Shown here piece by piece: positions 12,009-41,768 of a DNA stretch of 50,820 nucleotides. Numbering within the stretch: position 1 is the first letter of the stretch; each line of letters opens with the position of its first letter. The position numbers and the translations under genes were made by a program. The DNA is taken from IMG/VR virus record IMGVR_UViG_3300036818_000065, positions 1 through 50,820 of that record; one strand, given 5' to 3'. Source of the stretch: a virus (taxonomy: Duplodnaviria > Caudoviricetes). The notes under the pieces are model-generated. The model was not told where the DNA came from. It was given only the letters and a program-made list of their open reading frames with translations, and did not search any database.

Positions 12009-12217
12009 CGTATGGTGAGAACTCGATCGACATGGCGGCGAGGGTGCTCCTGGTTGGGGGAACTTTGAACGTGGTTGATGTCTTGAATGTCAAAGACCAA
12101 ACCGAGTTCACTATCCTTGACGTCATCGTCGATCGGGCTGCAGAATTTCAGGAAGTTCGAGACAAGAACCTAGCAACTGACATCGCCAACAAGATTGCAA
12201 AGAGCCAGAGGAAATAA
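11990..12217 (+). CDS. Tail assembly chaperone -1 frameshift extension (gpT-like)
   Basis: The -1 frame reads GGA TTT CTC GAA GAG CTG... with no stop into ORF 12032-12217. Confidence 0.65.
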   Translation, partial: GFLEELTYGENSIDMAARVLLVGGTLNVVDVLNVKDQTEFTILDVIVDRAAEFQEVRDKNLATDIANKIAKSQRK

Positions 12218-14622: not shown

Positions 14623-15302
14623 GTGAATTCCTCAGGATCTTGGCTCCTTCCGTCAACGTCGACCTAAAAGTCTTGATGGGCGCGGGAGCTGCAACTCCGA
14701 CCGGAGGCATTGGCGGTTGGACTCAAGAGGAACGCCCTGATGCCAAAAACCTGACGGAGTGGAAAGGCAACTCCACTGTCACCCAGGACATACCGATTTT
14801 GATTAATGGATTCATGGACGGCAACAATGTACAAGGGCAAGCCAACGACATCATTGCTTTGGGACGCAATCCCGAAGACGATGAAGTGCCGCCTGTGTTC
14901 CGGATGTTTGGGGCCATCTGGTTCCCTTGGTTCGCATGGGTGCTTGAAGGAATCAGTTGGGGTGAAGAACCTGGCGACGAGGTGATTCGTGACACCGACA
15001 CCACTTTGCTCCGACAGGAACTTACCTTGCACGTGGCTGAGTTCGAAGACCCTGATCAGATCAGGATCAAACGCATCAGGCACGCTTTCGGGGTTGGCAA
15101 GGGTGGTGGTGTCAACGCTCCTGGCAACATCTACATAGTACACAAAGGCGACACTATCGCTAGCATTGCGGCAAAAGTGTACGGTGATAGATCAGTTTGG
15201 AAAGTGCTAGCGAAGAAGAACGGAATTCGCGACCCCAATGCGGAATTGAAACCGGGCCGGGAGATCAAACTGCCTGCCAATCCTTGGGCCAACAATGGCT
15301 AA
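14619..15302 (+). CDS. Tail tube initiator with C-terminal LysM domain
   Basis: YIVHKGDTIASIAAKVYGD...LAKKNGIRDP..LKPGREIKLP is a LysM domain; follows the tape measure gene. Confidence 0.85.
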   Translation: MSEFLRILAPSVNVDLKVLMGAGAATPTGGIGGWTQEERPDAKNLTEWKGNSTVTQDIPILINGFMDGNNVQGQANDIIALGRNPEDDEVPPVFRMFGAIWFPWFAWVLEGISWGEEPGDEVIRDTDTTLLRQELTLHVAEFEDPDQIRIKRIRHAFGVGKGGGVNAPGNIYIVHKGDTIASIAAKVYGDRSVWKVLAKKNGIRDPNAELKPGREIKLPANPWANNG

Positions 15303-17184
15303 GACCAAGCATCATTCCAAGCGTCGCGAGAACAACCGTGTTCTTGGAATAGGACAGGACATTCGTGACATCAAACTGGTTGCCGATAACAGGCCGCTTC
15401 TGGTCGTCATTGGCGGCACTGTCTTAGACGCCCGCATCACCAGGACCATTGCTGGCGCCAGCAACATACAGATCACCGTTCATGACCCGGAACGAAAGCT
15501 GCTTCGGAATAAGATTTTAGAAGAAAAATGGTCGGTAGACATCGATGGCCTGAAGTTCCGGTATAAAGGAAAATCTAAGGCTGGTCCAGACATCACTTTG
15601 AAATTCATCGAAGAGAACGCTGCCCGGCTGCAGGAAGTGATGGGGACTCGCAAAGCCTACCGAGACCAGGTAACCAGGGCCGAGTTCATCTTGAGCGAGG
15701 TGCGCGAAGCCAAGGGACCAGAGATACCGGTTCGTATCTTCGAGCTTCACAAAGACCAGCCCATCAAACACGAAAAGGAACGACAGACCAAAAAGGAAGA
15801 ACGCAACGAATCTGGGGAGGAACACACCCAAGGCGAACCGGGTTTGGGGCAAGCCGACGTCGGCAACATCACCCTCAAGCACGTCAAGGCCACCGCACCG
15901 CAGGTTCACATCCTGGACACCGTGCTGGAAACTGGAATGAGCATGGGCGTGTCATTCAAGTTGCTGGTCTGCTCTGTCATGACCGTGACGCAGGAGAGCG
16001 ACGCAGAGGACCTGAACATCAAATCTGGACCCAATGGAGAAGGATATGGACCGTTCAGCCAAACTGCCGAATGGCGCAACGCTGGCTACCCAGGTGGAGT
16101 GCATGGCGACGTCGTGCAGTGCGCTCGGGGGTTCTTCCAAGTTGCGAGCCGGGTAGACAAAGCGCATCCGGACATGGCAAAGGGGCCGCTGTGCCAGGAA
16201 GTGCAACACGCCGGAGCGGGGCAGCTATACAGCCAGTGGGAAGATGAGTCAACCAAGACGGTCGAAACCTACTTGGGCGGCGCAGATGTGGGCAGTGTTG
16301 AGCAGACTGTCAAGGAGCGCTATGCCTTTGAGCGTGAAAAAAAGGAAAGCGCCTGGACCAACGCCAAAGAATTGGCCAAGGAGGTGCAGTGGCGTCGGTT
16401 TATGGTTGCTGGCAATTTCTTCTACGTCCCCGACACCTTCCTCATGCGTGGGAAAAAGCGCGCAAATATAGATGAGGACGACAGTGGTATTGACACCATA
16501 GACTTTGAAGACCATGAGAACCTCGAAGTCATGGAGGCCACTGTATCTTGCAGGGCTCCATACTGGAAGGTTCCGCCCGGATGCATAGTACAGCTGAACA
16601 AGAAAATGGGTTCGGCTCAGGGCTTGTATCTGGTCACCACCATCGAAGCAAGCCTGTTCGACAGCGACCCCAACATCACTGTCAAAATCCACAAACCGGT
16701 ACAGCCTCTCAAGGAGCCAGCTCCTTCCACTCACACCAATTCCATCAGTGTTCCTGGTAGTGGTAACGCTGAATTGGCAGGAGCACCTCAGAAGGTTGTC
16801 GAGATCATTGAATGGATTGATGAAGCAACTGACAAGGGAACCAACTACCTGGGGGGTGGTGGACATGGTTCCTTTGGAACTCCTGAGAGTGAAAAGGACT
16901 GCTCGGGCTTTGTGTCGGCTGCGGTTCACGCGGCTGGTTACCTTTCGCATCCGATCTCATCTGCCGAATTTGCCAGCGTGTTCGATAGTGGTCCTGGTGA
17001 TTGGGTAACGATCTATGGGGACTCTAAGCACGTCTTCCTAAAAGTGAAATATCCAGATGGACACTGGCGCTTTGCTGGCACCGGAGGTCCTACTGGATCG
17101 GGTGGATGGGTGCCAGAAAGTAATGCAACCTCGGGTGCTGCTGGTATTGGATCGAAAGTAGCTTCTCACCCGCCGGGATTGTAA
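15295..17184 (+). CDS. Baseplate hub with lysozyme-like insertion and C-terminal NlpC/P60-like peptidase
   Basis: Position; TQES...YGPFSQ...W (lysozyme-like); YLGGGGH...DCSGFVS...HVF (NlpC/P60-like Cys/His). Confidence 0.65.
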   Translation: MAKTKHHSKRRENNRVLGIGQDIRDIKLVADNRPLLVVIGGTVLDARITRTIAGASNIQITVHDPERKLLRNKILEEKWSVDIDGLKFRYKGKSKAGPDITLKFIEENAARLQEVMGTRKAYRDQVTRAEFILSEVREAKGPEIPVRIFELHKDQPIKHEKERQTKKEERNESGEEHTQGEPGLGQADVGNITLKHVKATAPQVHILDTVLETGMSMGVSFKLLVCSVMTVTQESDAEDLNIKSGPNGEGYGPFSQTAEWRNAGYPGGVHGDVVQCARGFFQVASRVDKAHPDMAKGPLCQEVQHAGAGQLYSQWEDESTKTVETYLGGADVGSVEQTVKERYAFEREKKESAWTNAKELAKEVQWRRFMVAGNFFYVPDTFLMRGKKRANIDEDDSGIDTIDFEDHENLEVMEATVSCRAPYWKVPPGCIVQLNKKMGSAQGLYLVTTIEASLFDSDPNITVKIHKPVQPLKEPAPSTHTNSISVPGSGNAELAGAPQKVVEIIEWIDEATDKGTNYLGGGGHGSFGTPESEKDCSGFVSAAVHAAGYLSHPISSAEFASVFDSGPGDWVTIYGDSKHVFLKVKYPDGHWRFAGTGGPTGSGGWVPESNATSGAAGIGSKVASHPPGL

Positions 17185-17642
17185 TGCCCAAACCTTCTGA
17201 ACAGATCAGCAACACTGTAGGTTCGTCGTCAGGCGAACAGCAGATGTATTCTGCTGTTGTTAGCAACGACGCATTGTCGCCCAGCGACGAGGTGTGGGTG
17301 ACTGTTCCTGACTTCGATGAAGGCGTCCATAAATTTGGACCGGTAGTTTGGAAGCCAGTTGTGAACGACAAAGGCATCTTCTATCCAAAGAAAGATGCTG
17401 CTTGCTTAATCTCCAAACCTGATCCGACTTTGAAGATTTGGATGCCTGAGTTTGAAGAGGCAGAGGAACCTGATGTTGTGCAGGCATCTGGCTTGCTGGA
17501 CACTGAAGGTTTGGGAGTGATCATCGTCGAAGACAATGAAGAGGACGAAACGCCTCGACCCAAAGGCTTTGCTCACCGCTGGTGGTTTGCTCACAAAGCC
17601 CCCAAAGAGGCAGTCCTCAACGACATTTGGACTAGGAGATAG
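17184..17642 (+). CDS. Baseplate spike/assembly-like protein
   Basis: After the hub; VWVTVPDF...YPKKDAACLI resembles the gpV OB-fold N-terminus. Confidence 0.5.
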   Translation: MPKPSEQISNTVGSSSGEQQMYSAVVSNDALSPSDEVWVTVPDFDEGVHKFGPVVWKPVVNDKGIFYPKKDAACLISKPDPTLKIWMPEFEEAEEPDVVQASGLLDTEGLGVIIVEDNEEDETPRPKGFAHRWWFAHKAPKEAVLNDIWTRR

Positions 17643-17643
17643 C

Positions 17644-18045
17644 ATGCTGCTCTTTTACTTGTTGCTGGCGCTGTCGTTCATCACGAACAGCGTCAAAGAA
17701 GGAATTCTCAAAGCCTTCAAAAATGAAGCTGCGACCAAATACGAAGAAGTATGGGTCAAGCTGTACAAAGGTAATCCAGGAGAAGCTGGTACGGCGGAAG
17801 CAGCCGGTGAAACGAAACGTCTAAAAGTAACGCTCACCGGCACTACGGTTCTCAAGAACAACGCTGCCCTCCTCTGGTCCGGGGTGTCTACGGCAGAGAC
17901 TCCAAAATTCCTTGGCTTCTGGACCACGGAAGGCGGAGGTACGTTCTTGGGCTACACCGAACTTGCAGCTGAATACCAGAAAGCCGTCAGCATCGGGGAC
18001 AACATCGAAATCCCCAAAGAAGGCTTTGAATGGAAAGTCGCATAG
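17644..18045 (+). CDS. Minor tail protein
   Basis: ATG 17644 with GGAG; VWVKLYKGNPGEAGT...GFWTTEGGGTFLG pattern common in phage tail modules. Confidence 0.6.
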   Translation: MLLFYLLLALSFITNSVKEGILKAFKNEAATKYEEVWVKLYKGNPGEAGTAEAAGETKRLKVTLTGTTVLKNNAALLWSGVSTAETPKFLGFWTTEGGGTFLGYTELAAEYQKAVSIGDNIEIPKEGFEWKVA

Positions 18046-18060
18046 CAAGGTAGTCTGCTC

Positions 18061-19116
18061 GTGGCCATTGCTTACAAAGGCAACAAAGAACTCGGGTACG
18101 TTGAACGTACCTCGATGGAACTTGAAAAGCCTGGGGAATCTGGCCAAATAGTTCTGATATGGATCTATGTCGAGAACCCAACGTTGAAAAAATTCACGGT
18201 CGAACAAGGGTCTAATGCCTGCACCCAGATTACTCCAGATGTCCTTGCAGGTGCTGCATTCTGCACCGGTGCATACTGGTGCGTTCACGATGGCACCAGC
18301 AGCAAAATCAAAGTGGAATGGGAAGGCGCTGCTAAACATGGATCGGTTCTGGTTCTTGACGCCTTCAGCGGAGTAGACACCACCACTCCGGTTGATGTCA
18401 CTGGCGTCATTCAGACTGGCGAAGCCACGGCTCTGAAATGGGCTGCACTAGAAATTGTCACTAAAGGGGCCTGGCAGATTGGGATGCAGTCTAATACTAG
18501 TGGCGAAGGGTTGTCCTCAACTCCAGCGGGATGGACGTTGCGTACCAATAGCTCGCCTCAGACGTTTTCCATAGAACGCGCAGCAACCGGAGCTACCGGT
18601 GAAACGGAAATCAAATGGACTGTCAAACATCTGTCAGCCCGATGCACCATGGCGCTGCGACCATCTGGCGGCGCCAAAACGGTAGAAATTAAAGCGGCTA
18701 TGTCGATGACTGTTACGCAGGCATCTAAACTTCTCCGAACCAGAGTGTTGAAAGCCGCACAAGAAATGACCTCTTCTTGGGCGGTCACTGTCTTGCGTAC
18801 CAGGGTGCTGAAAGCTGCTCAACAGATGACGGTATCAGTGACGTCTAGCTTGCTACGGACCAGGGTGCTCAAAGCAGTGCAATCTATGACTGTTTCGTTC
18901 AGCGCCAAAACTGCCTTGACGAAAGTGCTCATTGCTACCTTGAGCATGAACAACATGATAACCGCCAAAGTGGTCAGGACCAGAGTGCTCAAATCGGTCT
19001 TGGAAATGACCAACGTGATTTCGGTCAAACTGATCAGCGAAAAAGGATACGAACCAGGGACTTACCTCAAGACCGGACCTGGCGACGACGACTGGACTTT
19101 GATCATCAAAGGATAG
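18061..19116 (+). CDS. Minor tail / fibre-like protein with 20-aa repeats
   Basis: Beta-rich N-terminal domain followed by tandem LRTRVLKAxxxMT repeats; located in the tail module. Confidence 0.6.
   Translation: MAIAYKGNKELGYVERTSMELEKPGESGQIVLIWIYVENPTLKKFTVEQGSNACTQITPDVLAGAAFCTGAYWCVHDGTSSKIKVEWEGAAKHGSVLVLDAFSGVDTTTPVDVTGVIQTGEATALKWAALEIVTKGAWQIGMQSNTSGEGLSSTPAGWTLRTNSSPQTFSIERAATGATGETEIKWTVKHLSARCTMALRPSGGAKTVEIKAAMSMTVTQASKLLRTRVLKAAQEMTSSWAVTVLRTRVLKAAQQMTVSVTSSLLRTRVLKAVQSMTVSFSAKTALTKVLIATLSMNNMITAKVVRTRVLKSVLEMTNVISVKLISEKGYEPGTYLKTGPGDDDWTLIIKG
18676..19035 (+). repeat. Degenerate intragenic 60-bp tandem repeat (about 6 units)
   Basis: A unit encoding RTRVLK or a variant starts at 18736, 18796, 18856, 18916 (degenerate) and 18976, exactly 60 bp apart; a weaker unit starts at 18676. 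Confidence 0.8.
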
Positions 19117-25183: not shown

Positions 25184-25858
25184 ATGGAGTTCCCCAAACA
25201 TCTCAACCTTGACCTCACCAAGCGAGCCAGCCGCATGCTCAGCGCAGGCAACGTGGTAGTGACTGTCAAGAGCAAGTCGACGGGCGAGCACATCACCGTC
25301 AAGCTTGCAAGCCGCCTCAAAAACGATTCAGGGCGCGGCAAGAAATGGCAGCCCGTTGGCCCCGACCAAGCCAGCCACATCTTTGCTAGCGTTCGCAGCG
25401 CTGACGCCGCCGGGTGGGATGACAAGATTGGCACCTACTATCCCCGCAACGGTCGCTTCTACGAGGACGACAAAGCCGACCCGGCCCGGGTGTGGGCAGC
25501 GTCGGCGGTTATGCAGTGGCTCTGCGGCAATGCTGACGAAACTCGTGCCATCTACCAGGAGAGCAGCGAGTGTGGTCGTTGTGGCAAGAAGCTGACCGAC
25601 CCGGTAAGCATCGAACGCGGCATCGGTCCTGAATGCTGGGGCAAAGTGACCGGCAGCCAGCATCAGGTCAAGGACAAGACTGCGAGTAGCCGTCCAACGG
25701 AAGACGAGGTGATTGCCCGCGACGCGCGCAACGCAGAAGAAGAACACGCTGAGGCACACATGTTCGATCGGCAGACCAGAGGCGACGAGGCTGCTAAACG
25801 AGAGGCGCTCGCAGAATCCAGTGTCTTCACGGACGACAACGACGGAATCTTCAGTTGA
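25184..25858 (+). CDS. DUF6011-like zinc-finger protein
   Basis: CGRCGKKLTDPVSIERGIGPECW signature. Confidence 0.8.
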   Translation: MEFPKHLNLDLTKRASRMLSAGNVVVTVKSKSTGEHITVKLASRLKNDSGRGKKWQPVGPDQASHIFASVRSADAAGWDDKIGTYYPRNGRFYEDDKADPARVWAASAVMQWLCGNADETRAIYQESSECGRCGKKLTDPVSIERGIGPECWGKVTGSQHQVKDKTASSRPTEDEVIARDARNAEEEHAEAHMFDRQTRGDEAAKREALAESSVFTDDNDGIFS

Positions 25859-27340: not shown

Positions 27341-27586
27341 ATGCCAATCAAACATGGATCGGGTGAGCATGCAGAGTTGTGCGCTGCCCGCATGGCGGAA
27401 CGAGAGCACGAACGCAAGGAGCGCGCCCGCTTGGTTCGAGTCAAGCGCCGCCGCTGGCTACTCTGGACCCCGCTAGCCCTCGTTGGGGCAGTGTTGCTTG
27501 TGTGGCAGCTGACCAGCGACATGCCCATCCCGCTGCTGGTGTACGTAGGCATCGTGATGCTGCTGCCGACGGTGGTGGACGTCTGA
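27341..27586 (+). CDS. Small membrane protein (two TM segments)
   Basis: SD AAGGAG; two hydrophobic segments. Confidence 0.7.
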   Translation: MPIKHGSGEHAELCAARMAEREHERKERARLVRVKRRRWLLWTPLALVGAVLLVWQLTSDMPIPLLVYVGIVMLLPTVVDV

Positions 27587-27948
27587 TGGCTCTCACGCCT
27601 GCTCCAGACGGCTACCCCATCAAGCTGGTTCGCGACAACACGCCTGATCTGATCAACCAATCAGGCGAGCCAGGAGAATTGTGGTACGAGATCTCCACCA
27701 ATGTGGGAGAAGAGGAGCTTATGCGGCTTCTCAAACTCAAGCTCGCAGAGGAGGTGGGCGAGTATCTAGTTGACGGAGGGCGGAATGAGTTGGCTGATGT
27801 GCTGGCTGTGGTTGATGGGCTGTCTCGCCTACATGGGACTGGCTTGAGTGACATACTAGAGATCGTGCATAGTGACCCGCGCGGCATGTTTCCTGACGGG
27901 GTGGTCATGTTCGGTCGACATCCCGAGTTCGATGGAGGCGATGGATGA
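27586..27948 (+). CDS. MazG/HisE-like all-alpha NTP pyrophosphohydrolase
   Basis: KLVRDNTP...KLAEEVGEY...ELADVL (EExxE...ExxD); start reassigned to ATG 27586 (TGATG overlap). Confidence 0.8.
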   Translation: MALTPAPDGYPIKLVRDNTPDLINQSGEPGELWYEISTNVGEEELMRLLKLKLAEEVGEYLVDGGRNELADVLAVVDGLSRLHGTGLSDILEIVHSDPRGMFPDGVVMFGRHPEFDGGDG

Positions 27949-32575: not shown

Positions 32576-32775
32576 AAGTTCACCTCACTACGATGCCCGC
32601 CCCTTACGTTCTACCGGCCGACCCAAAGCAAGGCAGGCCCAAGGATGTAAAGGTTGACCGCGTTTCGATATTCAAGGTGGTCAAAATAGATGAACTAATT
32701 AAGTGGTGCAAAGACAACCCCGACGTTCCGGCCGACTCACTGGCCCTGTCGTTGGAGTCAGGAGCGTTCAAATGA
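32572..32775 (+). CDS. Hypothetical protein
   Basis: ATGA coupling on both sides. Confidence 0.65.
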   Translation: MKVHLTTMPAPYVLPADPKQGRPKDVKVDRVSIFKVVKIDELIKWCKDNPDVPADSLALSLESGAFK

Positions 32776-33581
32776 GGGCAGCAGTTCTAGGATATGGACC
32801 AGCAGGACTCATTGCCGCCAAGACGCTGGTTGATCAAGGCATTGACGTCGACGTCATAGGGGCTGGCGGCAAGAGCGTTATCGGCGGGGCGCAGTACCTG
32901 CACGAGCCCATCCTGAACGCCGAGCATGTCACCGACCCAGAGGGTTACATTGAGTTCCTCAAGGTTGGCGAGCGCGACGGCTACGCAAAAAAGATCTATC
33001 CGCAAGCTGAGTTCACTGTTAGCTGGGACAACTACGAGGGACGGCAACCAGCATGGGCATTGGGGCCTGTATATGACATCTTGTGGAAACACTTCGAGGA
33101 CAAACTGCTACACGACACGTTCAACGGCATGAGCCTCACCATGCTACTAGAGACCGACAAGTACGACGTCGTGTTCAGCAGCATCCCGGCACACGCACTT
33201 TGTATGCACAGCCATGACTTCCCCCGAGTGAATATCGCCCTGGTTCCATTCAGCCCCATCAACGGCATCAACAACGTGGTGCTATACAGTGGACGGCCGC
33301 AGGACGTTTGGTATCGAACCAGTGTCATATTCGGGGAGGCGTGGAGCGAGTTTGGGCAGAGCGAGATTGAGACGGTGCATTACACCTCCATGGCGGCCGA
33401 CGCCATCGGGGCAGAGGAGCTGCCAGTTCATCACGGCTTCAAGCCGCTCGGCACCAATTGCAACTGCCATCCAGAGGTCGTGCGGATAGGCCGGTTTGGA
33501 AGGTGGGACCGTAAAATTCTCCTGCACCACGTACCGCATCAGGTGCTGGGAGCTCTAGAAGACAAGGGGTTCACCCCATGA
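32772..33581 (+). CDS. FAD-dependent oxidoreductase, UDP-galactopyranose mutase (Glf)-like
   Basis: ATG 32772; AVLGYGPAGLIAA Rossmann motif; GAQYLH; FSSIP; IGRFGRW. Confidence 0.75.
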   Translation: MRAAVLGYGPAGLIAAKTLVDQGIDVDVIGAGGKSVIGGAQYLHEPILNAEHVTDPEGYIEFLKVGERDGYAKKIYPQAEFTVSWDNYEGRQPAWALGPVYDILWKHFEDKLLHDTFNGMSLTMLLETDKYDVVFSSIPAHALCMHSHDFPRVNIALVPFSPINGINNVVLYSGRPQDVWYRTSVIFGEAWSEFGQSEIETVHYTSMAADAIGAEELPVHHGFKPLGTNCNCHPEVVRIGRFGRWDRKILLHHVPHQVLGALEDKGFTP

Positions 33582-34237
33582 GATGCAGCGAGTGCAGCAA
33601 TACCATCAAGCCTTTGGTGGCCATCGACATCGACGGTACGCTGGGCGATTATCACACCCACTTCCTCCGGTTTGCCGACGCTTATTTGGGAGACACTATT
33701 CCTTTTGTATCGCCAAGCTACGCAGGGCAATGCTCATTCAAAGAATGGTTCATGACCGGGTACGGCTGCGATGAGTCGACCTGGCAGACCATCAAGCTAG
33801 CGTACCGACAGGGCGCTCAGAAGCGCAGCATGCCGTCGTACCCTGACGCACAGTGGCTTGTCAACAACCTGCGCTGGGACAACGTGGAGGTTTGGCTCAC
33901 TACGACGCGGCCGTACCTCCGGCTGGACGGCGTCGACCCGGACACTCGCGCGTGGCTTGATCGCATAGGCATCGAGTACGACGGGCTGCTGTATGACGAG
34001 GACAAGTACCACGTGCTGGGAGAGCGCATCGACCCGGACAGGGTAGTGGCGGTCTTGGACGACCTGCCCGAGATGTACGACGCGGCGGCACAGGTGTTTG
34101 GCAAAGACATCCCCATCCTTGCCAAGCAGGATTACAATGCCGACACCACCCGGCCAAACGAGGCGGAATCATTGGGGGCAGCGTTGGGTATGATTCAGGA
34201 TAGATTGGAGAGCTGGTATGGCAAATTCAGCAATTAA
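33578..34237 (+). CDS. HAD-family 5'(3')-deoxyribonucleotidase-like phosphatase
   Basis: AIDIDGTL (motif I), LTTTRP (II), DK (III), VLDDLPE (IV), YN. Confidence 0.8.
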   Translation: MRCSECSNTIKPLVAIDIDGTLGDYHTHFLRFADAYLGDTIPFVSPSYAGQCSFKEWFMTGYGCDESTWQTIKLAYRQGAQKRSMPSYPDAQWLVNNLRWDNVEVWLTTTRPYLRLDGVDPDTRAWLDRIGIEYDGLLYDEDKYHVLGERIDPDRVVAVLDDLPEMYDAAAQVFGKDIPILAKQDYNADTTRPNEAESLGAALGMIQDRLESWYGKFSN

Positions 34238-34541
34238 CGAGTCAGTGCTATCGCAGACTCTGGCTGATGCCGGGCTGGAAGACACTGACGACAATCGAAA
34301 TCAGTTGCGAGTGATGCTGGAAGCAATGTGCATCTACGAAGAGCGTGAGGCCGCGCGCGGGGGCTTGTGGAAGGCGGCTGGCGCTATCGACAGCGCACAC
34401 CACCTCAGGAGCAAGGCACGGCGCATCGTGTTTGCTGTCGACGCGCAGCCGGAGGCTGTCATTGATGATGGGCTGGACGCAGTAAACTACGCCGTGTTCG
34501 CTGTGCGCAATGTCAGGGCAGGAAGACTTGTAGAGAGCTAG
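34218..34541 (+). CDS. Nucleotide modification-associated domain 1 (Nmad1/DUF1599-like) protein
   Basis: IYEEREAARGGLWK...LRSKARRI...DDGLDAVNYAVF fits the family pattern. Confidence 0.65.
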   Translation: MANSAINESVLSQTLADAGLEDTDDNRNQLRVMLEAMCIYEEREAARGGLWKAAGAIDSAHHLRSKARRIVFAVDAQPEAVIDDGLDAVNYAVFAVRNVRAGRLVES

Positions 34542-34555
34542 CAGGAGGATCTAGA

Positions 34556-34936
34556 ATGGGCAGGTTATATAACAGCAAGCAGCAAATCCGGAAGGAACTG
34601 GAACGGCGTACTGATCCGGATAGCCCCCAAATGGAACAAATCATACTCGCGATGGCTTCTGAGCTCATAGCGGGGCATATCAGCATTCGCAATGGCATCC
34701 GAGGAATTCTCAGTATGACTGCAGACAACGAAGATTTCCCGAGCCAACTGCACAAGGACATCGTCGATCGCATAACTAGCGGCATGAAAGAACGTATGGT
34801 CGCGTTCGAACTAGAGTTGCTTGGAGTCATCGTCGATATCATATGGGAGATCGACAATTGCCAGTGCGATTGGTGCGCTGCGCGAGAAGCAGAAATCAAG
34901 GCGGCTGACAGGGCTTCGAAAGCGAAATACAATTGA
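34556..34936 (+). CDS. Hypothetical protein with C-terminal CxCxxC
   Basis: SD GGAGG; CQCDWC. Confidence 0.7.
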   Translation: MGRLYNSKQQIRKELERRTDPDSPQMEQIILAMASELIAGHISIRNGIRGILSMTADNEDFPSQLHKDIVDRITSGMKERMVAFELELLGVIVDIIWEIDNCQCDWCAAREAEIKAADRASKAKYN

Positions 34937-37900
34937 GCGAGAACACCGGACAAGGTAGCAGTGGTTCTTGGCGGGACGACGAGGTAGACAGCACCAAGAA
35001 TGCCACGCGCCGGGGCGCTGAAGAATCAGGACTTGACGCACAGGTCAGCACGTTCAAGCGTGACTGTGACCACGGCTACCAGCCTATAGGCATACGTGCC
35101 CGTAGGCGCCAGCGCGCGGCTGCCAGGCGCCATGCAAACCTCAAGCCCATGCGGTTTGTTAGCCTGCACCACCACAGCACTTATAGCTACCTGGACGGCT
35201 TTCAGCTTCCTGAGGCCCACGTCCGCCGCGCCACCGAGATCAACATGGGCGCCATCGCCATGACCGAGCATGGTAACATCTTCAGCCACGTCAAGTTGGA
35301 GAAAGCAGCAGAAGAGCAAGGAGTCAAACCGATCTTTGGTTGCGAGGTCTATTGCTCTCACGAACAATCCCAGAAAAAGAACCATCTCACCCTGCTGGCA
35401 ATGAACTCCGAAGGGTACAAGAACTTGCTGATGTTGGCAAGCAAATCTTGGGCAGATGGCTTCTACTACGAGCCCACCGTCAACTACAAATGGCTCAAAG
35501 AATACAGCAAGGGAATCGTCTGCCTAAGTGGCTGCCAAGGATCAGCGCTGTTTACTGCCCTCGTCGGAGGCAAGTTCGTTGACCCGGCTGATGCCAGCTA
35601 TGTTCGCGGCGAGAAGGTTGCCAAATTCTTCAAGCGCATCTTTGGTGACAGGTTCTTCTTGGAGGTTCAGGCGTTTCCGGAGCTGGAAAAAAGCTGTCAG
35701 GCCAACCCCATGATCGAAAGGCTAGGACGTGAGCTCGGGATCAGACTCGTTGCAACCATGGACTGCCACTACACTGCACCAGAGGAGCAAGAGATTCAGA
35801 AGTTGCTCCATAATGTGCGGCCGGGCGAGAAGAGGACCCTGGAGGATATGGTGCGTGATTGGGGGTATGAAGTTCCACTATGTCCTCCTCCGACTGACAT
35901 GGCAATCTACCGGCGTCTGCGGGGTACGGGTCTCAGCAAGCGTGGAGCGCTTGAGGCCATAATCAGCACTGAGGAGATAGCGCAGCAGTGCGAGGTTGAG
36001 CTACCCAAATTGCCGCCTGTCGAATATCCCCTTCCGAAAGGCTACGACACGCCCAAAGACCTTTGGCGGGCCTGGTTGAAGGAGGGATGGCTGTACCGCA
36101 AGTGCGACAAACTGCCGCCGAGAGAGAGAGCACGGTACAAAAAGCAGCTGGCCAAGGAGTGCGAGGTCATCGAGGCCAAGGGATATGAGAGTTACTTCCT
36201 CGTGGTAGCCGACACGGTCAAGTGGACCAAGAACGAACAGATACCAGTTGGCCCGGCTCGGGGCAGTGCTGCTGCGTCGCTCGCTTGTTGGCTACTACGC
36301 ATCACTGAGGTCAACCCAATGCTGTTTGACAACCTGGTGTTCGAGCGCTTCATTGATTGGTCACGCGAAGATATGCCAGACATCGACCTTGACTTTGCCA
36401 CCTATGGTCGTCCACAGATCAGGGACTACCTGGTCGGCAAATATGGCGAGGGGTGCGTCAACAATATCGGCACGTTCACGGTGTACAAATCTAAGTTGGC
36501 GCTTGACGATGTGGCGCGGGTGCACCGCATTCCCAAATTCAAAACTGAGACTGTCAAAGGCTTGTTGATCGAACGTAGCTCAGGGGACCTGCGCGCCAGC
36601 GCCACCATTGAGGATACGGCTGGCCAGTTCCCTGACGCAGCCAAAGTGTTTGAGGAACATCCCGAGCTTCAGATGGCTATGGACCTGGAGGGCAACGTCA
36701 AGGGGTTTGGGGTGCATGCTGCCGGTCTGGTGGTTAGCAACGGTCCCATCACTGACGTGACGGCGGTGCTGGAGAAGAACATCAAGGGAAATCTGGTGCA
36801 GGTGGTAAGCATGGACAAGAAGGACGCTGAGCGCCAGGGTCTTGAGAAGCTTGATTTTCTCGCGTTGGGTACGATGGACATGATCGCCGACGCACTACAC
36901 CGGTTGGACATGACGGTTGAGGAACTGTATGAACTGCCGCTTGATGATCCCAAAACGATCGAAGGCTTCCGGCAGAACGACGTGCTTGGCATCTTCCAGT
37001 TCGAGGGGCGTGCCATGCGCAGCATCAACGGTGCTCTCAAGCCCGACAATTTCGATGAAATCTGCGACGTCACCGCGTTGGCCCGGCCGGGTCCGCTGCA
37101 CAACGGCGCGGCTAACGCTTACATCGACATCAAGCGCGGTGCTGCCCAGCCTGAAATCATTCACCCGGCGTTGAGCGCTATCACTGAGCGCACCAACTAT
37201 CAGATTGTGTACCAGGAGCAAATCTTGAAAGCTGTAGTTGAGATCGGTCAGTTTGACTGGACCCACGCCAGCTACATTCGAAAGATCATTAGCAAGAAGT
37301 TGGGCGAGCAGGAGTTCAATCGACAGTGGTCGCGCTTCTGGGATGGAGCGCGTACGATTGATCAGCGTTCTGATTACGAACCCATGACTGAAGCTACGGC
37401 CAAACGAATATGGGGCAACTTGATCACGTCTGGTTCCTACGCCTTCAATGCTGCCCACTCACGCAGCTACGGCATGATTGGGTACTGGTGCCAATGGCTC
37501 AAGCAGCATCACCCAGAGGTTTTCTTTGCAAGCAGCTTGACCAAAACTCGCCGTGGCTCTGGCGGTGGTAACGTTAAGGCGCAGTTTAAAGGTGGACAGA
37601 TTGACCGTCACGTGGTGCTAATGCGTGACGCGAAGAAAGGCAAACCGGAGTGCGGTCGTAAGCCTATCAGGGTGATGCCTCCTTCCTACGACAGTGGGAT
37701 GCATTGGGAGTATGAGGATGGTGTGCTGTGGGCGGGATTGGTGCAGATACCTGGCGTAGGGGACAAAACGGCAGAAGCCATGGCGGCGTATGCCAAAGAG
37801 AATGAGATCGAAGCATGGGAAAACTATGTGGATGTCAAAGGCATTGGGCCAAAGACCATAGACAAAATTGAAGAGTTTTGTGAACGACCTGACCCATTCA

Positions 37901-38349
37901 ACATAGAAGGCATTGATCGAACTCTTGACACTGTGCGGGACATGCTTAGTGAGGGTTGGGCTGACATGCCGGTTCCCACGCACACGTCAGTTGACGTACC
38001 CTACGAGCGTGGTAGGGACGAGAAGATTGTGTTCCTGGGTATGCCAATGGATATCAATCTGCGCGACATCTTCGAGAGCAACAGGGCACGAACCGGCGAA
38101 GAGCTCAGTCGTAATTCAGTTCGTGATCCGGACAAGAACGAGTGGGTCATGATCCTATGTACCGATGGTGACGAGCAAGTAACTATCCGTGTTGATCGCT
38201 GGCGCTATCCAAGGTTCCGGAAGATGGTTTGGGGTGCGCAGATGGGTCACGACTTGTTGCTGGTGGAGGGAGTTAAGCCTGGGTTCCGCACGGCCCGGGA
38301 GATTTATGTAAGGAAAATGTGGGTCATTGACCCCGACGAGGAGGATTGA
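34933..38349 (+). CDS. dnaE: DNA polymerase III alpha subunit-like (family C)
   Basis: PHP motifs HHHSTYSYLDG, TEHGN, GCEVY, DCHY; RGSAAAS; FERF...PDIDLDF; HAAG; YQEQ; YAFNAAHS; alternative start ATG 35149. Confidence 0.95.
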   Translation: MSENTGQGSSGSWRDDEVDSTKNATRRGAEESGLDAQVSTFKRDCDHGYQPIGIRARRRQRAAARRHANLKPMRFVSLHHHSTYSYLDGFQLPEAHVRRATEINMGAIAMTEHGNIFSHVKLEKAAEEQGVKPIFGCEVYCSHEQSQKKNHLTLLAMNSEGYKNLLMLASKSWADGFYYEPTVNYKWLKEYSKGIVCLSGCQGSALFTALVGGKFVDPADASYVRGEKVAKFFKRIFGDRFFLEVQAFPELEKSCQANPMIERLGRELGIRLVATMDCHYTAPEEQEIQKLLHNVRPGEKRTLEDMVRDWGYEVPLCPPPTDMAIYRRLRGTGLSKRGALEAIISTEEIAQQCEVELPKLPPVEYPLPKGYDTPKDLWRAWLKEGWLYRKCDKLPPRERARYKKQLAKECEVIEAKGYESYFLVVADTVKWTKNEQIPVGPARGSAAASLACWLLRITEVNPMLFDNLVFERFIDWSREDMPDIDLDFATYGRPQIRDYLVGKYGEGCVNNIGTFTVYKSKLALDDVARVHRIPKFKTETVKGLLIERSSGDLRASATIEDTAGQFPDAAKVFEEHPELQMAMDLEGNVKGFGVHAAGLVVSNGPITDVTAVLEKNIKGNLVQVVSMDKKDAERQGLEKLDFLALGTMDMIADALHRLDMTVEELYELPLDDPKTIEGFRQNDVLGIFQFEGRAMRSINGALKPDNFDEICDVTALARPGPLHNGAANAYIDIKRGAAQPEIIHPALSAITERTNYQIVYQEQILKAVVEIGQFDWTHASYIRKIISKKLGEQEFNRQWSRFWDGARTIDQRSDYEPMTEATAKRIWGNLITSGSYAFNAAHSRSYGMIGYWCQWLKQHHPEVFFASSLTKTRRGSGGGNVKAQFKGGQIDRHVVLMRDAKKGKPECGRKPIRVMPPSYDSGMHWEYEDGVLWAGLVQIPGVGDKTAEAMAAYAKENEIEAWENYVDVKGIGPKTIDKIEEFCERPDPFNIEGIDRTLDTVRDMLSEGWADMPVPTHTSVDVPYERGRDEKIVFLGMPMDINLRDIFESNRARTGEELSRNSVRDPDKNEWVMILCTDGDEQVTIRVDRWRYPRFRKMVWGAQMGHDLLLVEGVKPGFRTAREIYVRKMWVIDPDEED

Positions 38350-38543
38350 GTATGCTCAAAGGAAAACAGCTGTATGAAGTCGCCCGCAAATTTGCAGAGG
38401 AGGATTTGGTACCGGCCCTCAATGGCAATGAAGTCGACGAGGAGGCTACGGACGCCATTCTCGAGAAAGCGGCAGAGCTCGGCATCGCCCTCTTGATTGA
38501 CATCGCTGAGAGCTTGCACGGTATCAAGGCGAAGGTTGGGTAA
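38346..38543 (+). CDS. Hypothetical protein
   Basis: Coupled to the dnaE stop; SD GGAGG. Confidence 0.65.
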   Translation: MSMLKGKQLYEVARKFAEEDLVPALNGNEVDEEATDAILEKAAELGIALLIDIAESLHGIKAKVG

Positions 38544-38548
38544 TTCAG

Positions 38549-38791
38549 ATGCCAAAACAGCCAACTGATACCCAAAGGTTCTTGTTGAAGCGCGTTGTCA
38601 GCCGAGCTTATCGTGCAGGATGGAGCGGGAAGCTTGGCAATGACATGGCCCCTTCTCTGAGTGTCGGTAGACGTTATGGCGGTGCTGACTGTTCAATGCC
38701 TACGGCTATGTCGCTAGCCAGGCAAGGGCTGGTGCAAGAGGGGCATCATGACTTTGGTTTTGCCTTCAACGTGATCAGTGTCGGTTGGTAA
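38549..38791 (+). CDS. Hypothetical protein
   Basis: Fills the operon gap; weak SD. Confidence 0.5.
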   Translation: MPKQPTDTQRFLLKRVVSRAYRAGWSGKLGNDMAPSLSVGRRYGGADCSMPTAMSLARQGLVQEGHHDFGFAFNVISVGW

Positions 38792-38913
38792 GCTGATCGA
38801 AGAACGGGCTGGCGGTGAGGGAGGGAGTGGCGAGTGCTGCTTCGACCTGAATGAATTGGAACAGCTGGGCCTGTTCTTGCCGAAGTAAACCCACAATTAC
38901 CAGGAGAAATAGC

Positions 38914-39831
38914 ATGGGTGAAGAGATTCAGAAGTGGGCTGACGATGCGATGTTTGCCGCCGAGCCGATGGACGTAGGTGAGGGAGAGCAGATTATGCCA
39001 AGGGTGTACCTGCTACAGGCCACGCCTGATCCGCTGGGTGGCATTGCTGCTATGGCGATGATGTATGAGGGCAAGGTTGTCCGAAACCTCCACGACATAA
39101 CCGACGAGCAGCGACGGCACTACTGGGAGGAGTCGCAGAAGACGCATCTGCGTGCACCGCACGAGGCCGTCGACCTGCACTTCATGGTTGAGGGGGTGAC
39201 GCGCGCCTTCACCCATCAGATGGTGCGCCAGCGTACGGCCGTCTACGCGCAAGAGTCTCTGCGCTTTGCGGTAAAGGAGGGGTTCGCTGACGAGGTGCCG
39301 CTGCCACCCAGCCTTATGGGGCTCAAGCCTGATGACGCTAGCGTGCGGGCATGGCAGGACTGCATTAAAGAGGTTGAGGAAATGTACGAATTCCTTATCA
39401 ACCGAGGTGTGCCAGCAGAGGACGCGCGTGGTCTACTGCCTCACAGCATTACTACGCGACTCAACTACAAGACCAACTTGCGCAACCTGGTCGAGCACAT
39501 TGGAAATCGGCTGTGTACGCAAGCGCAGTTCGAATGGCGGCTTGAGGTCACCGAGCTCATGCGTGCCATCCGCATGTATAAAGGTCCTATCACGGCCTAC
39601 GGATTTGACTCTAATCTTGGGCCAGATCACGAACGTGGAAATGCCTGGCAGTTCAAGACCATCGCCAAGTCGGAGTTGTTTAGGCCGGTGTGCTACTCAC
39701 TCGGATACTGCCCCTTCACGGCTGACTTCGACCGGGGGTGCACGATCAGGGGCAGGGTTGAAGAAGGCAAGTTCAATGAGATCGACATTCGTGAGTGGCT
39801 GATGGACCCAGCTGCAGCTAGGAGGGGATGA
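38914..39831 (+). CDS. thyX: ThyX-like flavin-dependent thymidylate synthase homologue (variant motif)
   Basis: GVTRAFTHQMVRQR-x7-SLR, AEDARGLLP, NLRNL, RLCTQAQFEWR; ATG 38914 with AGGAG. Confidence 0.85.
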   Translation: MGEEIQKWADDAMFAAEPMDVGEGEQIMPRVYLLQATPDPLGGIAAMAMMYEGKVVRNLHDITDEQRRHYWEESQKTHLRAPHEAVDLHFMVEGVTRAFTHQMVRQRTAVYAQESLRFAVKEGFADEVPLPPSLMGLKPDDASVRAWQDCIKEVEEMYEFLINRGVPAEDARGLLPHSITTRLNYKTNLRNLVEHIGNRLCTQAQFEWRLEVTELMRAIRMYKGPITAYGFDSNLGPDHERGNAWQFKTIAKSELFRPVCYSLGYCPFTADFDRGCTIRGRVEEGKFNEIDIREWLMDPAAARRG

Positions 39832-40211
39832 TGTGGCGTAAGGTGCGGCATCCCATCCTTACCTTCAAGCGCTGGCGGCTACGCAGGCAGCACGTCGTAA
39901 ACAGCAAGGTTGACTTGCAGGCCAGCCGCAAACATCGTCTGCCGCTGGAGCAGTGCACTGTAGATCAACTGCAGTCAGCGCTGCGACACAATGAAAGGGA
40001 GGCGTTGCGATATCAGCAGATTGTAAATGGTCGTCCACACAAGGGCAACTATGATGCACTTGCCACCTGGCACCGCATGTGCCAGCGGCCCATCAAAGAA
40101 CTGATTGCTGAGTTGGGTAAGCTGGGAGACGGCAAGCGAGTTGAGGACATTAGGTGGAAGCGTCGACGTCGTCCGACGGAAGAGTTGATGCGTATTCGTA
40201 GGCTGGGGTGA
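39828..40211 (+). CDS. Hypothetical basic protein
   Basis: Coupled ORF with GGAGG SD. Confidence 0.6.
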   Translation: MMWRKVRHPILTFKRWRLRRQHVVNSKVDLQASRKHRLPLEQCTVDQLQSALRHNEREALRYQQIVNGRPHKGNYDALATWHRMCQRPIKELIAELGKLGDGKRVEDIRWKRRRRPTEELMRIRRLG

Positions 40212-40858
40212 AGGTTGTGGCTAGCAAAAAGCGCATGGAACAAGATCCTAATCTAGACCCTAAGACTGGCAAGAAGAAAGATCGCCGTAAGGATGACAAG
40301 CCCAAGCAGCCTACCTTCGATATCAAAATCGATTTTGAGAAAATCGGCTTCACCTCAGAGGGGGTGAATAGGACGGCTGAGGCCATGCGCAAAGCAATCA
40401 AGGCTGGTCGCATCCATAGCTTCGAGGAGTACCGTTACATGTTCGGAAGCGGTCCGAGAGCCAGCGGTGGCGGCAACGTGTTCATTGAGGGCGGAGACGG
40501 GATATTCCATTCATTCTACGACAGGTTGGCTGCCAATACGGTGAACATGATCGGAGAAGGCGTGGACTTCAAATCTGCAGTGAGTCGTATGCTTCACAGC
40601 AAGGCTATTGAGTGCTGGGATAATCTGCTTAACTGGCAGTTTGCTGTGACTTACCAAGATGGGCAAGATAAGTATTGGTTCACTGCTCGGTACTATGACG
40701 ACGAGGAAGCGTCGCCGGTGCCTCTGGTGTCGGAGACGTTGGAGTTCAGCGGCGAGGTTCTTATTGAACAGAACTGGGATGAGACCAACTTGGAGGTTGA
40801 GAGGCAGATGGAACAACTACACGAGAAGTGCGTGGCTGATTTGGCGGCGTTTGAATGA
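40208..40858 (+). CDS. Hypothetical protein
   Basis: 216-aa ORF coupled on both sides. Confidence 0.65.
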   Translation: MKVVASKKRMEQDPNLDPKTGKKKDRRKDDKPKQPTFDIKIDFEKIGFTSEGVNRTAEAMRKAIKAGRIHSFEEYRYMFGSGPRASGGGNVFIEGGDGIFHSFYDRLAANTVNMIGEGVDFKSAVSRMLHSKAIECWDNLLNWQFAVTYQDGQDKYWFTARYYDDEEASPVPLVSETLEFSGEVLIEQNWDETNLEVERQMEQLHEKCVADLAAFE

Positions 40859-41157
40859 GCGTCTCGCAGTATATGGTCGCGCTTGAGAAGGCTAACGCCA
40901 CGCGGCTAGCCAGGGCTGATCTCAAACGCAAGATCAAAGACAATGACCGCGAGCTGCTGCGCGCTCTAGAAGATCCTCCTTACTTCATCATGAACTGCCC
41001 TATTGGCGAGCTGCTCAGCGCTCAAAGACGCTGGGGGATGACCAAGACGAGGAAGTTCTTGACGCCATTCAATATCAAGGAGCACAGGACTGTAGAAGAT
41101 CTAACTAAAAGGCAAAGGGACCTGCTGGTCTCGGGCCTAGAAGGAGACAGAATATGA
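40855..41157 (+). CDS. Actinobacterial-type integration host factor (mIHF/sIHF-like, H2TH fold)
   Basis: ALEKANATRLARADLKRKIK...IGELLSAQRRWGMTKTRKFL...TVEDLTKRQRDLL. Confidence 0.8.
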   Translation: MSVSQYMVALEKANATRLARADLKRKIKDNDRELLRALEDPPYFIMNCPIGELLSAQRRWGMTKTRKFLTPFNIKEHRTVEDLTKRQRDLLVSGLEGDRI

Positions 41158-41768
41158 GTGGATTTGACACTGGCAACAAGTTGCAATTTGGTCCCAATGG
41201 CGAGAAGTTGACCAGAACCAGCTTGATTACTCACAGCCTGCACACCATCGACCTAGCAGCGCCTTGTGCTGAGGACGTGTACCTGTCAGACATCGCGCAC
41301 GGCCTGAGCATGCACGTGCGCTGGGCTGGGCAGGGGTCATGGTTGAGTGTTGCGCAGCATAGCGTCATGGTCATGCGCTACATTGAGGCGGAGGGCGATC
41401 GGCTTGATTTGGGCACTGACAAAGGCTTGCTATCTGCAGCGCTGTTACACGATGCACACGAGGCTTACATTGGCGATCTAAGCGGTGGCCTTAAGTACAT
41501 GTTGCGCTATAGCGAGCTGCCTTCTTTGATTATCAGTATTGATCGCGCCATCGGAGAGAAAATGGGGGTACAAATGGCGCATGGCTTCCAAGATGTCGAA
41601 CGTGCTATTGATAGGGCTGAGCAGGATTTGATAACTGAGGAATATGGATTCTTGTTTCGCAACCTTGACAGCCCATGGATAGAAGGCGGCATGTGCAACA
41701 AAATGGCTGAGGGTCTTTTCTTGAGCGAAGCTGCCCGCTTGGGCATGGTGGACGATGTCGATCGGTAA
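41154..41768 (+). CDS. HD-domain phosphohydrolase (YfbR-like deoxynucleotidase)
   Basis: DIAHGLS..VRWAG...SVAQHS...ALLHDAHEAYIGD. Confidence 0.85.
   Translation: MSGFDTGNKLQFGPNGEKLTRTSLITHSLHTIDLAAPCAEDVYLSDIAHGLSMHVRWAGQGSWLSVAQHSVMVMRYIEAEGDRLDLGTDKGLLSAALLHDAHEAYIGDLSGGLKYMLRYSELPSLIISIDRAIGEKMGVQMAHGFQDVERAIDRAEQDLITEEYGFLFRNLDSPWIEGGMCNKMAEGLFLSEAARLGMVDDVDR

Follow-up and report, generated by a model that had tools for sequence, protein, structure and literature searches.

The virus record IMGVR_UViG_3300036818_000065 of IMG/VR is a single contig of 50,820 bases that represents a whole phage genome; this full stretch is called the window and its numbering is used throughout. The subject here is a cassette of three genes in the window, encoding a small flavoprotein, a HAD phosphatase and a variant of ThyX, together with the neighbouring gene for the phage's own replicative polymerase, DnaE. 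As a candidate for a new pathway of DNA modification, the cassette is strong but unproven. It is part of a run of genes inside the replication module, which spans 22.7–42 kb, and the genes on which the argument depends are the following:

32772–33581, plus strand: ThyX-associated small flavoprotein of 269 amino acids (aa), with an FAD-type GxGxxG motif, a predicted minimal fold of the UDP-galactopyranose mutase (UGM)/protoporphyrinogen oxidase (PPO) class and a C-terminal GRFGxW motif.
33578–34237, plus strand: HAD phosphatase with an inserted helical cap, overlapping the flavoprotein stop by 4 bases.
34933–38349, plus strand: DnaE, the replicative polymerase, with PHP, NTPase, finger and HhH domains; it neighbours the cassette without defining it.
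38914–39831, plus strand: ThyX-like protein of 305 aa, whose motif reads RQR where ThyX has RHR and whose C-terminal extension is rich in cysteine (C201, C260, C266 and C276).

The flavoprotein matches phrog_8720 in PHROGs (E 1e-36). In Pfam, it gives sub-threshold Rossmann matches only; for the query as for all 33 family members, these extend no further than the dinucleotide-binding turn at the N-terminus, and the Pfam GLF domain is absent from all 33 members at E 0.1. An AlphaFold model was built from 33 sequences (pLDDT 92.3, pTM 0.89) and used in an all-against-all structural search, in which the UGM structure 4dsg_A ranked first (Z 16.0, rmsd 3.7, 261 of 269 residues), ahead of UGM 3hdq (Z 13.6), protoporphyrinogen oxidases (13.1) and amino-acid oxidases (about 13), and Foldseek agrees with a UGM-like fold. 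UGM (Glf) is the closest fold and shares the FAD-type Rossmann start; the C-terminal GRFGxW also resembles the C-terminal motif of UGM. In contrast, the flavoprotein has 269 aa where UGMs have 365–473, is only 13–14% identical to them and has no Pfam GLF match. When the model is compared with the three-domain UGM fold, the Z-score of 16.0 comes with a protein 100–200 residues shorter that has few helices at model residues 140–240. Because UGM leads the protoporphyrinogen and amino-acid oxidases by only about 3 Z units, the modelled match is one of fold class and not of UGM enzyme identity.

The flavoprotein family is large, with at least 601 clusters (50% identity) at E ≤ 1e-30 in a profile search of 1.84 billion representatives; among the 150 best listed, nearly all are 243–302 aa long. 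Six residues, C144, C230, R182, E193, K224 and R241, are invariant in 78 diverse homologues. H44, H148 and C232 are nearly invariant, with H148 and C232 present in at least 90% of the 78, giving the pattern C-x3-H ... C-x-C. The C144/C230 pair was considered as a general feature of these proteins and rejected, as it is not kept in the ORF65 family of Pbunavirus, which is described below.

The ThyX-like protein matches Pfam Thy1 (PF02511) with E 1e-30 and 104.2 bits, against a gathering cut-off of 24.8. Its score against the NCBIfam thyX equivalog TIGR02170 is 73.4 bits, which is below the cut-off of 87.9. The ThyX motif, RHR(X)7S, appears here as VRQRTAVYAQESLRF: both arginines, the serine and the next arginine are retained and the histidine is replaced by glutamine. 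An alignment to ThyX of T. maritima, for which catalytic and binding roles of the positions were assumed, shows that the equivalents of R78, R80, S88, R90, R147, R165 and R174 are retained, while H79 is replaced by Q, H53 by L, Y91 by F and H178 by Q. The family comprises 2,856 matches, the best 120 of which are 55–85% identical to the window protein.

Loss of the histidine goes with the flavoprotein. It is absent from 11 of 11 aligned ThyX proteins linked to a flavoprotein (RQR in five, RTR in four, RSR in one and RNR in one) and is kept in ThyX from T. maritima, from a Clostridium phage and from Sulfolobus virus STSV2, the two viral genomes having no flavoprotein match. Similarly, 100 of 134 ThyX-like loci, near-identical ones included, show the motif within the portion aligned and none of these has a histidine in it (Q in 93, S in 5, T in 1 and I in 1). 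The window protein thus shares with canonical ThyX (T. maritima, M. tuberculosis and PBCV-1) the Thy1 domain, the motif Arg and Ser residues, and the R147, R165 and R174 equivalents. It differs from them in having N- and C-terminal extensions (305 aa versus approximately 220–250), four clade-specific cysteines, an RQR motif, a sub-equivalog score and, in nearly all loci as counted below, a small flavoprotein as partner. The four cysteines, the first of which (C201) lies just after the R174 equivalent, do not vary among 27 close relatives and may form a clade-specific metal or disulfide site. A general role as an Fe-S or Zn site on which the chemistry depends was considered and rejected, since they are replaced in Hiddenleaf (Microbacterium) and Wollypog (Arthrobacter).

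The third member of the cassette is assigned to the HAD superfamily by motifs I–IV (D17xD19, T109, K143 and D161-D162), which are invariant in 17 homologues, and it matches phrog_415 (E 2e-15). Its closest structures are tied between deoxyribonucleotidases (3bwv, Z 16.9; 6g2n, 16.4) and sugar-phosphate phosphatases (3mc1, 16.7; 1te2, 16.1). The helical cap and these top matches indicate a small-molecule substrate, and the protein is likely to be a (deoxy)nucleotide or sugar-phosphate phosphatase, as judged from the model. A search of PDB sequences with the family profile gave nothing significant, and a single-sequence search gave chance TIM-barrel matches only. As a separate observation, many HAD homologues carry a C-x2-C pair (MRCSECS...) right before motif I (loci L005, L015, L035, L022, L010, L054 and L004; compare window 33578–33620), and others are without it.

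How often these genes occur together was examined in 82 flavoprotein loci (80 from IMG/VR and two from isolates), which were counted when at least 9 kb of downstream sequence was available (n = 49), and in a reciprocal set of ThyX-like loci whose upstream flank measured 7 kb or more (n = 58). The flavoprotein loci contain DnaE in 49 of 49 cases, a ThyX-like gene in 48 and the HAD gene in 42. Reciprocally, the ThyX-like loci contain the flavoprotein in 56 of 58, DnaE in all 58, the HAD gene in 40 and an Nmad1-like gene in 18; in the two without a flavoprotein, the module appears to extend beyond the fetched flank. These counts include near-identical contigs from loci that were picked by similarity to the query, and taken alone they could reflect shared descent.

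Isolated phages show the same association. When tblastn was used, the flavoprotein was found in 126 isolate genomes, all of them actinobacteriophages and all annotating it as 'oxidoreductase', with host genera that include Gordonia (46), Microbacterium (36) and Mycobacterium (32). For the ThyX-like protein (E ≤ 1e-10) the corresponding numbers are 46, 36 and 28. A published compilation of actinophage clusters, in the part available, places the oxidoreductase pham in clusters AE, BN, D, DG, DV and EF, the phosphatase in AE, BN, D, DV and EF, and the ThyX-like protein in D, DG, DV and EF (PMC11385102). Gene order varies. Wollypog, Gibson, LuckyLeo and Gumball have the oxidoreductase first and the phosphatase/nucleotidase second, with DnaE a few genes further on and the ThyX-like gene a few genes beyond that; Hiddenleaf, a Microbacterium phage, has a flavoprotein gene that overlaps the start of the ThyX-like gene, and in seven IMG/VR loci the latter lies 1.1–2.3 kb downstream of the former. 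Two additional genes were seen between the HAD gene and DnaE in Gumball (cluster D; locus 11437–13158) and in the Gordonia phage LuckyLeo (13969–16059), namely a small methyltransferase (Pfam Methyltransf_11, E 5.5e-7 for Gumball gp63) and a FabG-like reductase, neither of which is in the window.

The cassette can also be missing as a whole. Fowlmouth, Emianna, Rope and P1201 share with the window the helicase, the Cas4 exonuclease and a DnaE of 34–44% identity, and have no flavoprotein, no HAD of the window kind and no ThyX-like gene, as confirmed for Fowlmouth and Rope by profile searches of the whole records. The window flavoprotein-family profile missed ORF65 of phage 14-1 at E 0.01, and sequence-profile absences of the flavoprotein are therefore weak. 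Downstream of DnaE, the Mycobacterium phage Rope (locus 13112–16235) has a different thymidylate synthase, which gives no ThyX-like match, and an annotated nucleoside deoxyribosyltransferase. A search for related loci with DnaE alone returned two loci only. Co-occurrence of the flavoprotein, HAD and ThyX-like genes is far beyond chance, and the conserved core is the flavoprotein with the ThyX-like protein, often joined by the HAD phosphatase, and not DnaE. An earlier sequence-only reading of the window had proposed a base-modification pathway built around DnaE and had suggested a search for co-occurrence of the flavoprotein, HAD, Nmad1, ThyX and DnaE genes in other phages. The strong linkage was found for the flavoprotein, HAD and ThyX genes, the Nmad1-like gene being present in just the 18 loci counted above. 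The central place given to DnaE does not hold, as relatives carry the same DnaE backbone without the cassette and no DnaE is annotated in the 14.9 kb around the pair in a Rhizobium phage described next.

Outside the actinophage-type group, the nearest ThyX relatives belong to Pseudomonas PB1-like phages and their kin. When the flavoprotein model was used to search viral structure models, the match was likewise an uncharacterised Pseudomonas phage protein. In phage 14-1, ORF65 (333 aa) has a GxGxxG start and lies 1.2 kb upstream of ThyX. Genes for a HAD-domain protein, an exonuclease and DnaE come after ThyX, and a MazG-like gene is close by. Homologues of ORF65 from 14-1, XcP1, Ro157lw, MyoSmar and RHph_TM61 were aligned and compared to the window flavoprotein family using hhalign, which gave a probability of 97.7% with E 2.4e-12 over 231 columns (88.5% with the single ORF65 sequence). 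The alignment runs from the Rossmann start through shared 'YxxKVxG' and 'STxP' motifs to the C-terminal 'GRFxxW', and on this comparison the window flavoprotein is homologous to ORF65 of Pbunavirus.

Relatives of ORF65 were found in 362 phage records, including those of Pseudomonas (292), Escherichia (27), Serratia (9), Rhizobium (8) and Xanthomonas (6) phages, and ThyX matches in the same genera number 291, 26, 8, 10 and 6, respectively. The two genes are neighbours in the five genomes inspected, which are the five used for the alignment. In the 200-kb Rhizobium phage, they lie within approximately 2 kb of each other. A FabG-like reductase stands beside the pair in Wifcevirus, Xanthomonas phage XcP1 and Escherichia phage Ro157lw, and those of XcP1 and Ro157lw are 30–32% identical to the reductases of mycobacteriophage cluster D and related Gordonia (Lambovirus) phages. 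The resemblance between the window and 14-1 includes a ThyX that likewise belongs to the histidine-less clade (33.5% identity across 188 residues), DnaE (34% identity), a HAD protein in the same PHROG and the presence of a MazG-like gene, whereas the genomes are otherwise unrelated: by tblastn only 4 of 70 window ORFs have a match in 14-1, these being DnaE, ThyX, a DUF6011 stretch and a piece of the terminase. The DUF6011 stretch comprises 33 residues with 48% identity between the window protein at 25184–25858 and ORF12 of 14-1. Linkage that survives changes in gene order, joint absence from backbone relatives and recurrence of the pair in unrelated phages argue that the genes form a functional unit.

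What makes the Pbunavirus pair informative is the DNA of these phages. According to the available passages of a 2025 preprint by Yee et al. (PMC12191111), DNA of phage F8 resists enzymes with TG in their site, and nucleoside analysis of F8 and 14-1 virion DNA by liquid chromatography–mass spectrometry revealed new nucleosides derived from thymidine, with 362 and 390 mass units, which take the place of roughly one T in four, in a TG context. The authors interpret the two as a tetrose sugar-alcohol derivative and a cyclised aldopentose derivative and state that Pbunavirus carries no previously known modification genes; those passages name neither ThyX nor ORF65. Mass arithmetic done here is in agreement with a common core: 258 for 5-hydroxymethyl-deoxyuridine (5-hmdU) plus 122 for a tetritol, minus 18, is 362, and 258 plus 150 for a pentose, minus 18, is 390. 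By arithmetic, both masses equal 5-hmdU joined with loss of water to a tetritol or a pentose. Our literature search found no paper linking ThyX or a flavoprotein of the window type to a modified base, and a term search of the available text of a T-dioxygenase paper (PMC13229309) found no mention of Pbunavirus.

Known systems provide precedents of a related kind. A flavin-binding ThyA homologue makes 5-hydroxy-dCMP in RB69 and DLP3 (PMC13326640, available in part), which shows, by analogy, that thymidylate-synthase folds can be turned to new chemistry at pyrimidine C5. That enzyme resembles the proposal made here in belonging to a thymidylate-synthase family, in using flavin and in carrying out new C5 chemistry that feeds later glycosylation; it differs in its ThyA fold, its cytosine substrate and its nearby glycosyltransferases, whereas the window has a ThyX fold and no glycosyltransferase was found in it. 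In SPO1, PhiW-14, M6, ViI and PaMx11, a thymidylate-synthase homologue likewise sits beside phosphatases or pyrophosphatases in a nucleotide-metabolism module, and thymidine hypermodification in PaMx11 involves a flavin-dependent tailoring enzyme, gp47 (PMC8989533, in the part available). In those phages, the synthase homologue is a dUMP hydroxymethylase of the ThyA family, and that of the window has the unrelated ThyX fold. The scanned ORFs of the window include no 5-hmdU DNA kinase, aGPT-Pplase, radical SAM or pyridoxal-phosphate enzyme.

Taken together, these observations lead us to favour, tentatively and at somewhat less than an even chance, the explanation that the ThyX-centred cassette makes a 5-substituted deoxyuridine, that is a thymidine derivative, for phage DNA, and not only dTMP. 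Genes, folds, co-occurrence, joint absence and homology to the Pbunavirus pair are established for the cassette; from them we infer every step of the following mechanism. The ThyX-like enzyme would use the flavin/methylene-folate route to attach a one-carbon unit to C5 of dUMP. Rather than undergoing reduction, the exocyclic-methylene intermediate would then react with water or an alcohol, giving 5-hydroxymethyl-dUMP or its ether. The UGM-like flavoprotein, together with the reductase where one is present, might make or tailor the sugar or polyol partner or might act on the 5-substituent, and the HAD phosphatase could dephosphorylate that partner or lower the competing pool of dTMP and dUMP. 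In the window phage, an HD-domain hydrolase and a MazG-like enzyme may add to the shaping of the nucleotide pool, and the phage DnaE would incorporate the modified nucleotide. By analogy, the UGM-like fold, the FabG-like reductase of relatives and the capped HAD are enzyme kinds that handle sugars, polyols and their phosphates. Sugar or polyol adducts on C5 would need a C5 one-carbon transferase, sugar or polyol enzymes, a phosphatase and a tolerant polymerase, and the cassette with DnaE offers matching folds. Pre-replicative modification of a pyrimidine by a thymidylate-synthase homologue is known, and what is proposed here would be an unproven variant of it.

The remainder of the module supplies the accessory genes that enter this scheme. 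The flavoprotein-to-HD run is preceded by the primase-helicase gene, and overlaps of 4–20 bases join most of its genes, which is usual for phage operons and no evidence by itself. Features of the module other than the cassette and DnaE are:

22775, plus strand: helicase.
25184–25858, plus strand: DUF6011 protein (Pfam E 6e-14).
26066, plus strand: Cas4-type exonuclease.
27586–27948, plus strand: candidate MazG/PRA-PH-like all-alpha NTP pyrophosphatase, a lead only; accessory of the window phage only.
27945, plus strand: Sak4/RecA-like protein.
28721, plus strand: SSB-like protein.
29475, plus strand: DUF5659 protein.
29774, plus strand: primase-helicase.
34218–34541, plus strand: Nmad1/DUF1599-like small helical protein, a lead only, from a language-model/structure atlas.
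34556–34936, plus strand: CxCxxC orphan of 126 aa, with C-x-C-x2-C near the C-terminus.
40208–40858, plus strand: protein of 216 aa whose membership of the cassette is uncertain, faintly resembling the C-terminal domain with which nucleotide-sugar dehydrogenases bind UDP.
41154–41768, plus strand: HD-domain hydrolase, candidate 5'-deoxynucleotidase of the YfbR/T5-Dmp-like kind; accessory of the window phage only.

DnaE itself is well supported by Pfam (DNA_pol3_alpha 1e-62, PHP 7e-42), with 143.9, 212.3 and 127.1 bits for its PHP, NTPase and finger domains, which places it in the family. It is a single gene in the window and is split into two in Wollypog (14365–18241), Hiddenleaf (11578–14929) and the fetched loci L168, L170 and L171; in Wollypog, a gene for an HNH endonuclease lies between the two halves. 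The HD hydrolase has the HD motif and matches phrog_318 (E 3e-23) and PDB 2gz4 (2.5e-7), with Pfam HD and YfbR-like below cut-off (16.2 versus 25.9 bits for the latter). The Nmad1-like protein is an atlas lead (score 0.90, TM 0.70 to DUF1599 clusters) with no Pfam match up to E 10, PF07659 included. The MazG-like protein is another (0.93, TM 0.72 to all-alpha NTP pyrophosphatase clusters); it has no match in Pfam, PHROGs or NCBIfam, and its sequence shows a pattern that resembles the EExxE...ExxD motif of MazG-type enzymes. Residues 118–212 of the 216-aa protein match TIGR03026 (E 5.8e-4) and Pfam UDPG_MGDP_dh_C (E 0.09), and no homologue of this protein was found among the related loci. The CxCxxC orphan matched no family and has no relatives among the fetched loci.

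All eight genes named in the sequence-only reading are present on the plus strand at the starts that it gave, and its labels fared unevenly. 'Glf/UGM-like' is fair for the fold of the flavoprotein (4dsg_A) and not for its enzyme activity, 'variant ThyX' agrees with the RQR motif and the sub-equivalog score, and the HD hydrolase is backed as such by the PHROG and PDB matches, with Pfam HD and YfbR-like below cut-off. For the Nmad1/DUF1599-like and MazG-like proteins, the genes are there and profile support for the names is not, leaving the atlas leads. Up to four hydrolases had been assigned to the pathway; relatives of the window HD and MazG-like genes occur in 0 of 58 ThyX-like loci, which makes these two accessories of the window phage only. 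The central idea of that reading, a base-modification pathway, gains indirect support from the homologous flavoprotein/ThyX pair in Pbunavirus, where thymidine is reported to be hypermodified, whereas its DnaE-centred, four-hydrolase form does not.

Every long ORF of the window lies on the plus strand. The left 22 kb of the genome encodes the portal, protease, major head protein, tail sheath, tape measure and baseplate, and the large terminase gene is at 47973. As these structural genes include a tail sheath and baseplate, the phage is predicted to be contractile-tailed. The portal ORF (1674–3905) overlaps the protease-like ORF (3721–5448) by 185 bases, and its C-terminal 130 residues match a head-maturation-protease PHROG, which may reflect a mis-set start or a programmed arrangement. 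A megablast search with a 10-kb region against 50,697 phage records gave no match.

Several observations weigh against a role of the cassette in modifying DNA. Our search of the literature found no nucleoside analysis for the window phage or for cassette-bearing actinophages (clusters D, DV and EF). In Pbunavirus, the genes behind the modification may be others than ORF65 and ThyX, and the TG context points to at least one step on DNA after replication by a further enzyme. The HAD of 14-1 is of the capless PNKP type (Pfam HAD_PNKP) with an extra C-terminal part, whereas that of the window is capped; hhalign of the window HAD family with this protein (ORF57) was not significant (probability 0.6%), and by these comparisons the two are not clearly orthologous. 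Among approximately 60 of 70 window ORFs scanned against at least one of Pfam, PHROGs and NCBIfam, there was no glycosyltransferase, nucleobase kinase, amino-acid:DNA transferase or methyltransferase. Some G/C-only palindromes are avoided (CCGCGG, 0 versus 11.5 expected; GGCC, 0.77), with TGCA mildly avoided as well (0.81), and the window DNA is therefore not blind to restriction; such statistics are too weak to decide on modification. GGGCCC is also absent (4.7 expected) and GAGCTC is over-represented (30 versus 14.7), and host restriction pressure on G/C-only sites may be at work.

The ThyX-like protein itself provides the remaining counter-evidence, which leads to a different explanation that we regard as a serious contender without thinking it probable: the enzyme supplies ordinary dTMP for canonical DNA, the flavoprotein is a helper, either a reductase or on the one-carbon/folate side, that compensates for the lost RHR histidine, and the HAD, HD and MazG-like enzymes do no more than clean or rebalance the nucleotide pool, as happens in phages whose DNA is normal. 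Because the residues equivalent to those of T. maritima are kept, the protein could bind dUMP and make plain dTMP, and the Thy1 match and the retained motif Arg and Ser residues favour this. It is the sole thymidylate-synthase homologue in five of five cassette-bearing isolates checked, with ThyA (PF00303) in none of the five, the pattern expected of an ordinary thymidylate synthase. The Streptomyces phage Gibson carries a dCMP deaminase, the usual feeder of dTMP synthesis, and MazG-like genes are also found in Fowlmouth and Rope, the backbone relatives without the cassette. In addition, phrog_318, to which the HD hydrolase belongs, is named after a deoxynucleoside monophosphatase; its type member is presumably Dmp of T5, a phage with canonical DNA. 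On the other hand, the UGM class is not a known type of flavin reductase. To our knowledge, characterised ThyX systems need no separate reductase, and a folate reductase is not needed either, as the ThyX reaction leaves tetrahydrofolate. Coupling a nucleotidase to a dTMP synthase would counteract the synthase, and ordinary dTMP supply leaves the Pbunavirus and Wifcevirus observations unexplained.

Two further explanations deal with the linkage instead of the synthase. One holds that the flavoprotein and HAD, with the reductase and methyltransferase of relatives, make up a small-molecule pathway that does not concern DNA bases, such as one for a sugar nucleotide, a cofactor or an attack on the host envelope, and lie near ThyX as early metabolic genes. 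The UGM-like fold, the capped HAD with its structural tie between nucleotidases and sugar-phosphate phosphatases (Z 16.9–14) and the FabG-like reductase and methyltransferase in the cluster D cassette are all compatible with it. We consider it quite improbable: the link to ThyX persists across gene orders, host phyla and genomes of 50–200 kb, the cassette always lies within the replication/nucleotide module, and the envelopes of Actinomycetota and Pseudomonadota are so different that a shared envelope target is unlikely. The other holds that there is no functional unit at all, only synteny inherited by common descent within one phage lineage. The helicase, Cas4 exonuclease and DnaE are also widely retained in the same loci, and the manner in which the IMG/VR loci were picked would favour such a picture. 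Against this, the backbone relatives jointly lack exactly the flavoprotein, HAD and ThyX-like genes, and the pair recurs both in 14-1, with so few ORFs in common, and close together in the 200-kb Rhizobium phage, and we give plain synteny, the least credible of the explanations, very little weight.

Synthesis of a 5-substituted deoxyuridine by the cassette would have consequences beyond the window phage. A bolder form of this proposal, which we consider unlikely but worth stating, is that the histidine-less ThyX and the UGM-like flavoprotein are the missing core for the O-linked polyol and pentose 5-hmdU of Pbunavirus; this would be the first chemistry of a ThyX fold that does not lead to dTMP. 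The same core is present in the window phage, in six actinobacteriophage clusters (AE, BN, D, DG, DV and EF), and in Wifcevirus, Carpasinavirus and Myosmarvirus, and hundreds of sequenced phages that are currently regarded as unmodified would then have hypermodified thymidine. The pair would provide gene candidates for the orphan hypermodification of Pbunavirus, a genus widely used for therapy. Base-modifying chemistry would extend to the ThyX fold, and a large uncharacterised flavoprotein family would be defined. Many actinophages of teaching collections would possibly be modified, which would affect studies of restriction, CRISPR, sequencing and defence systems. Should the DNA instead prove canonical, an obligate flavoprotein partner of a ThyX clade would still be new enzymology.

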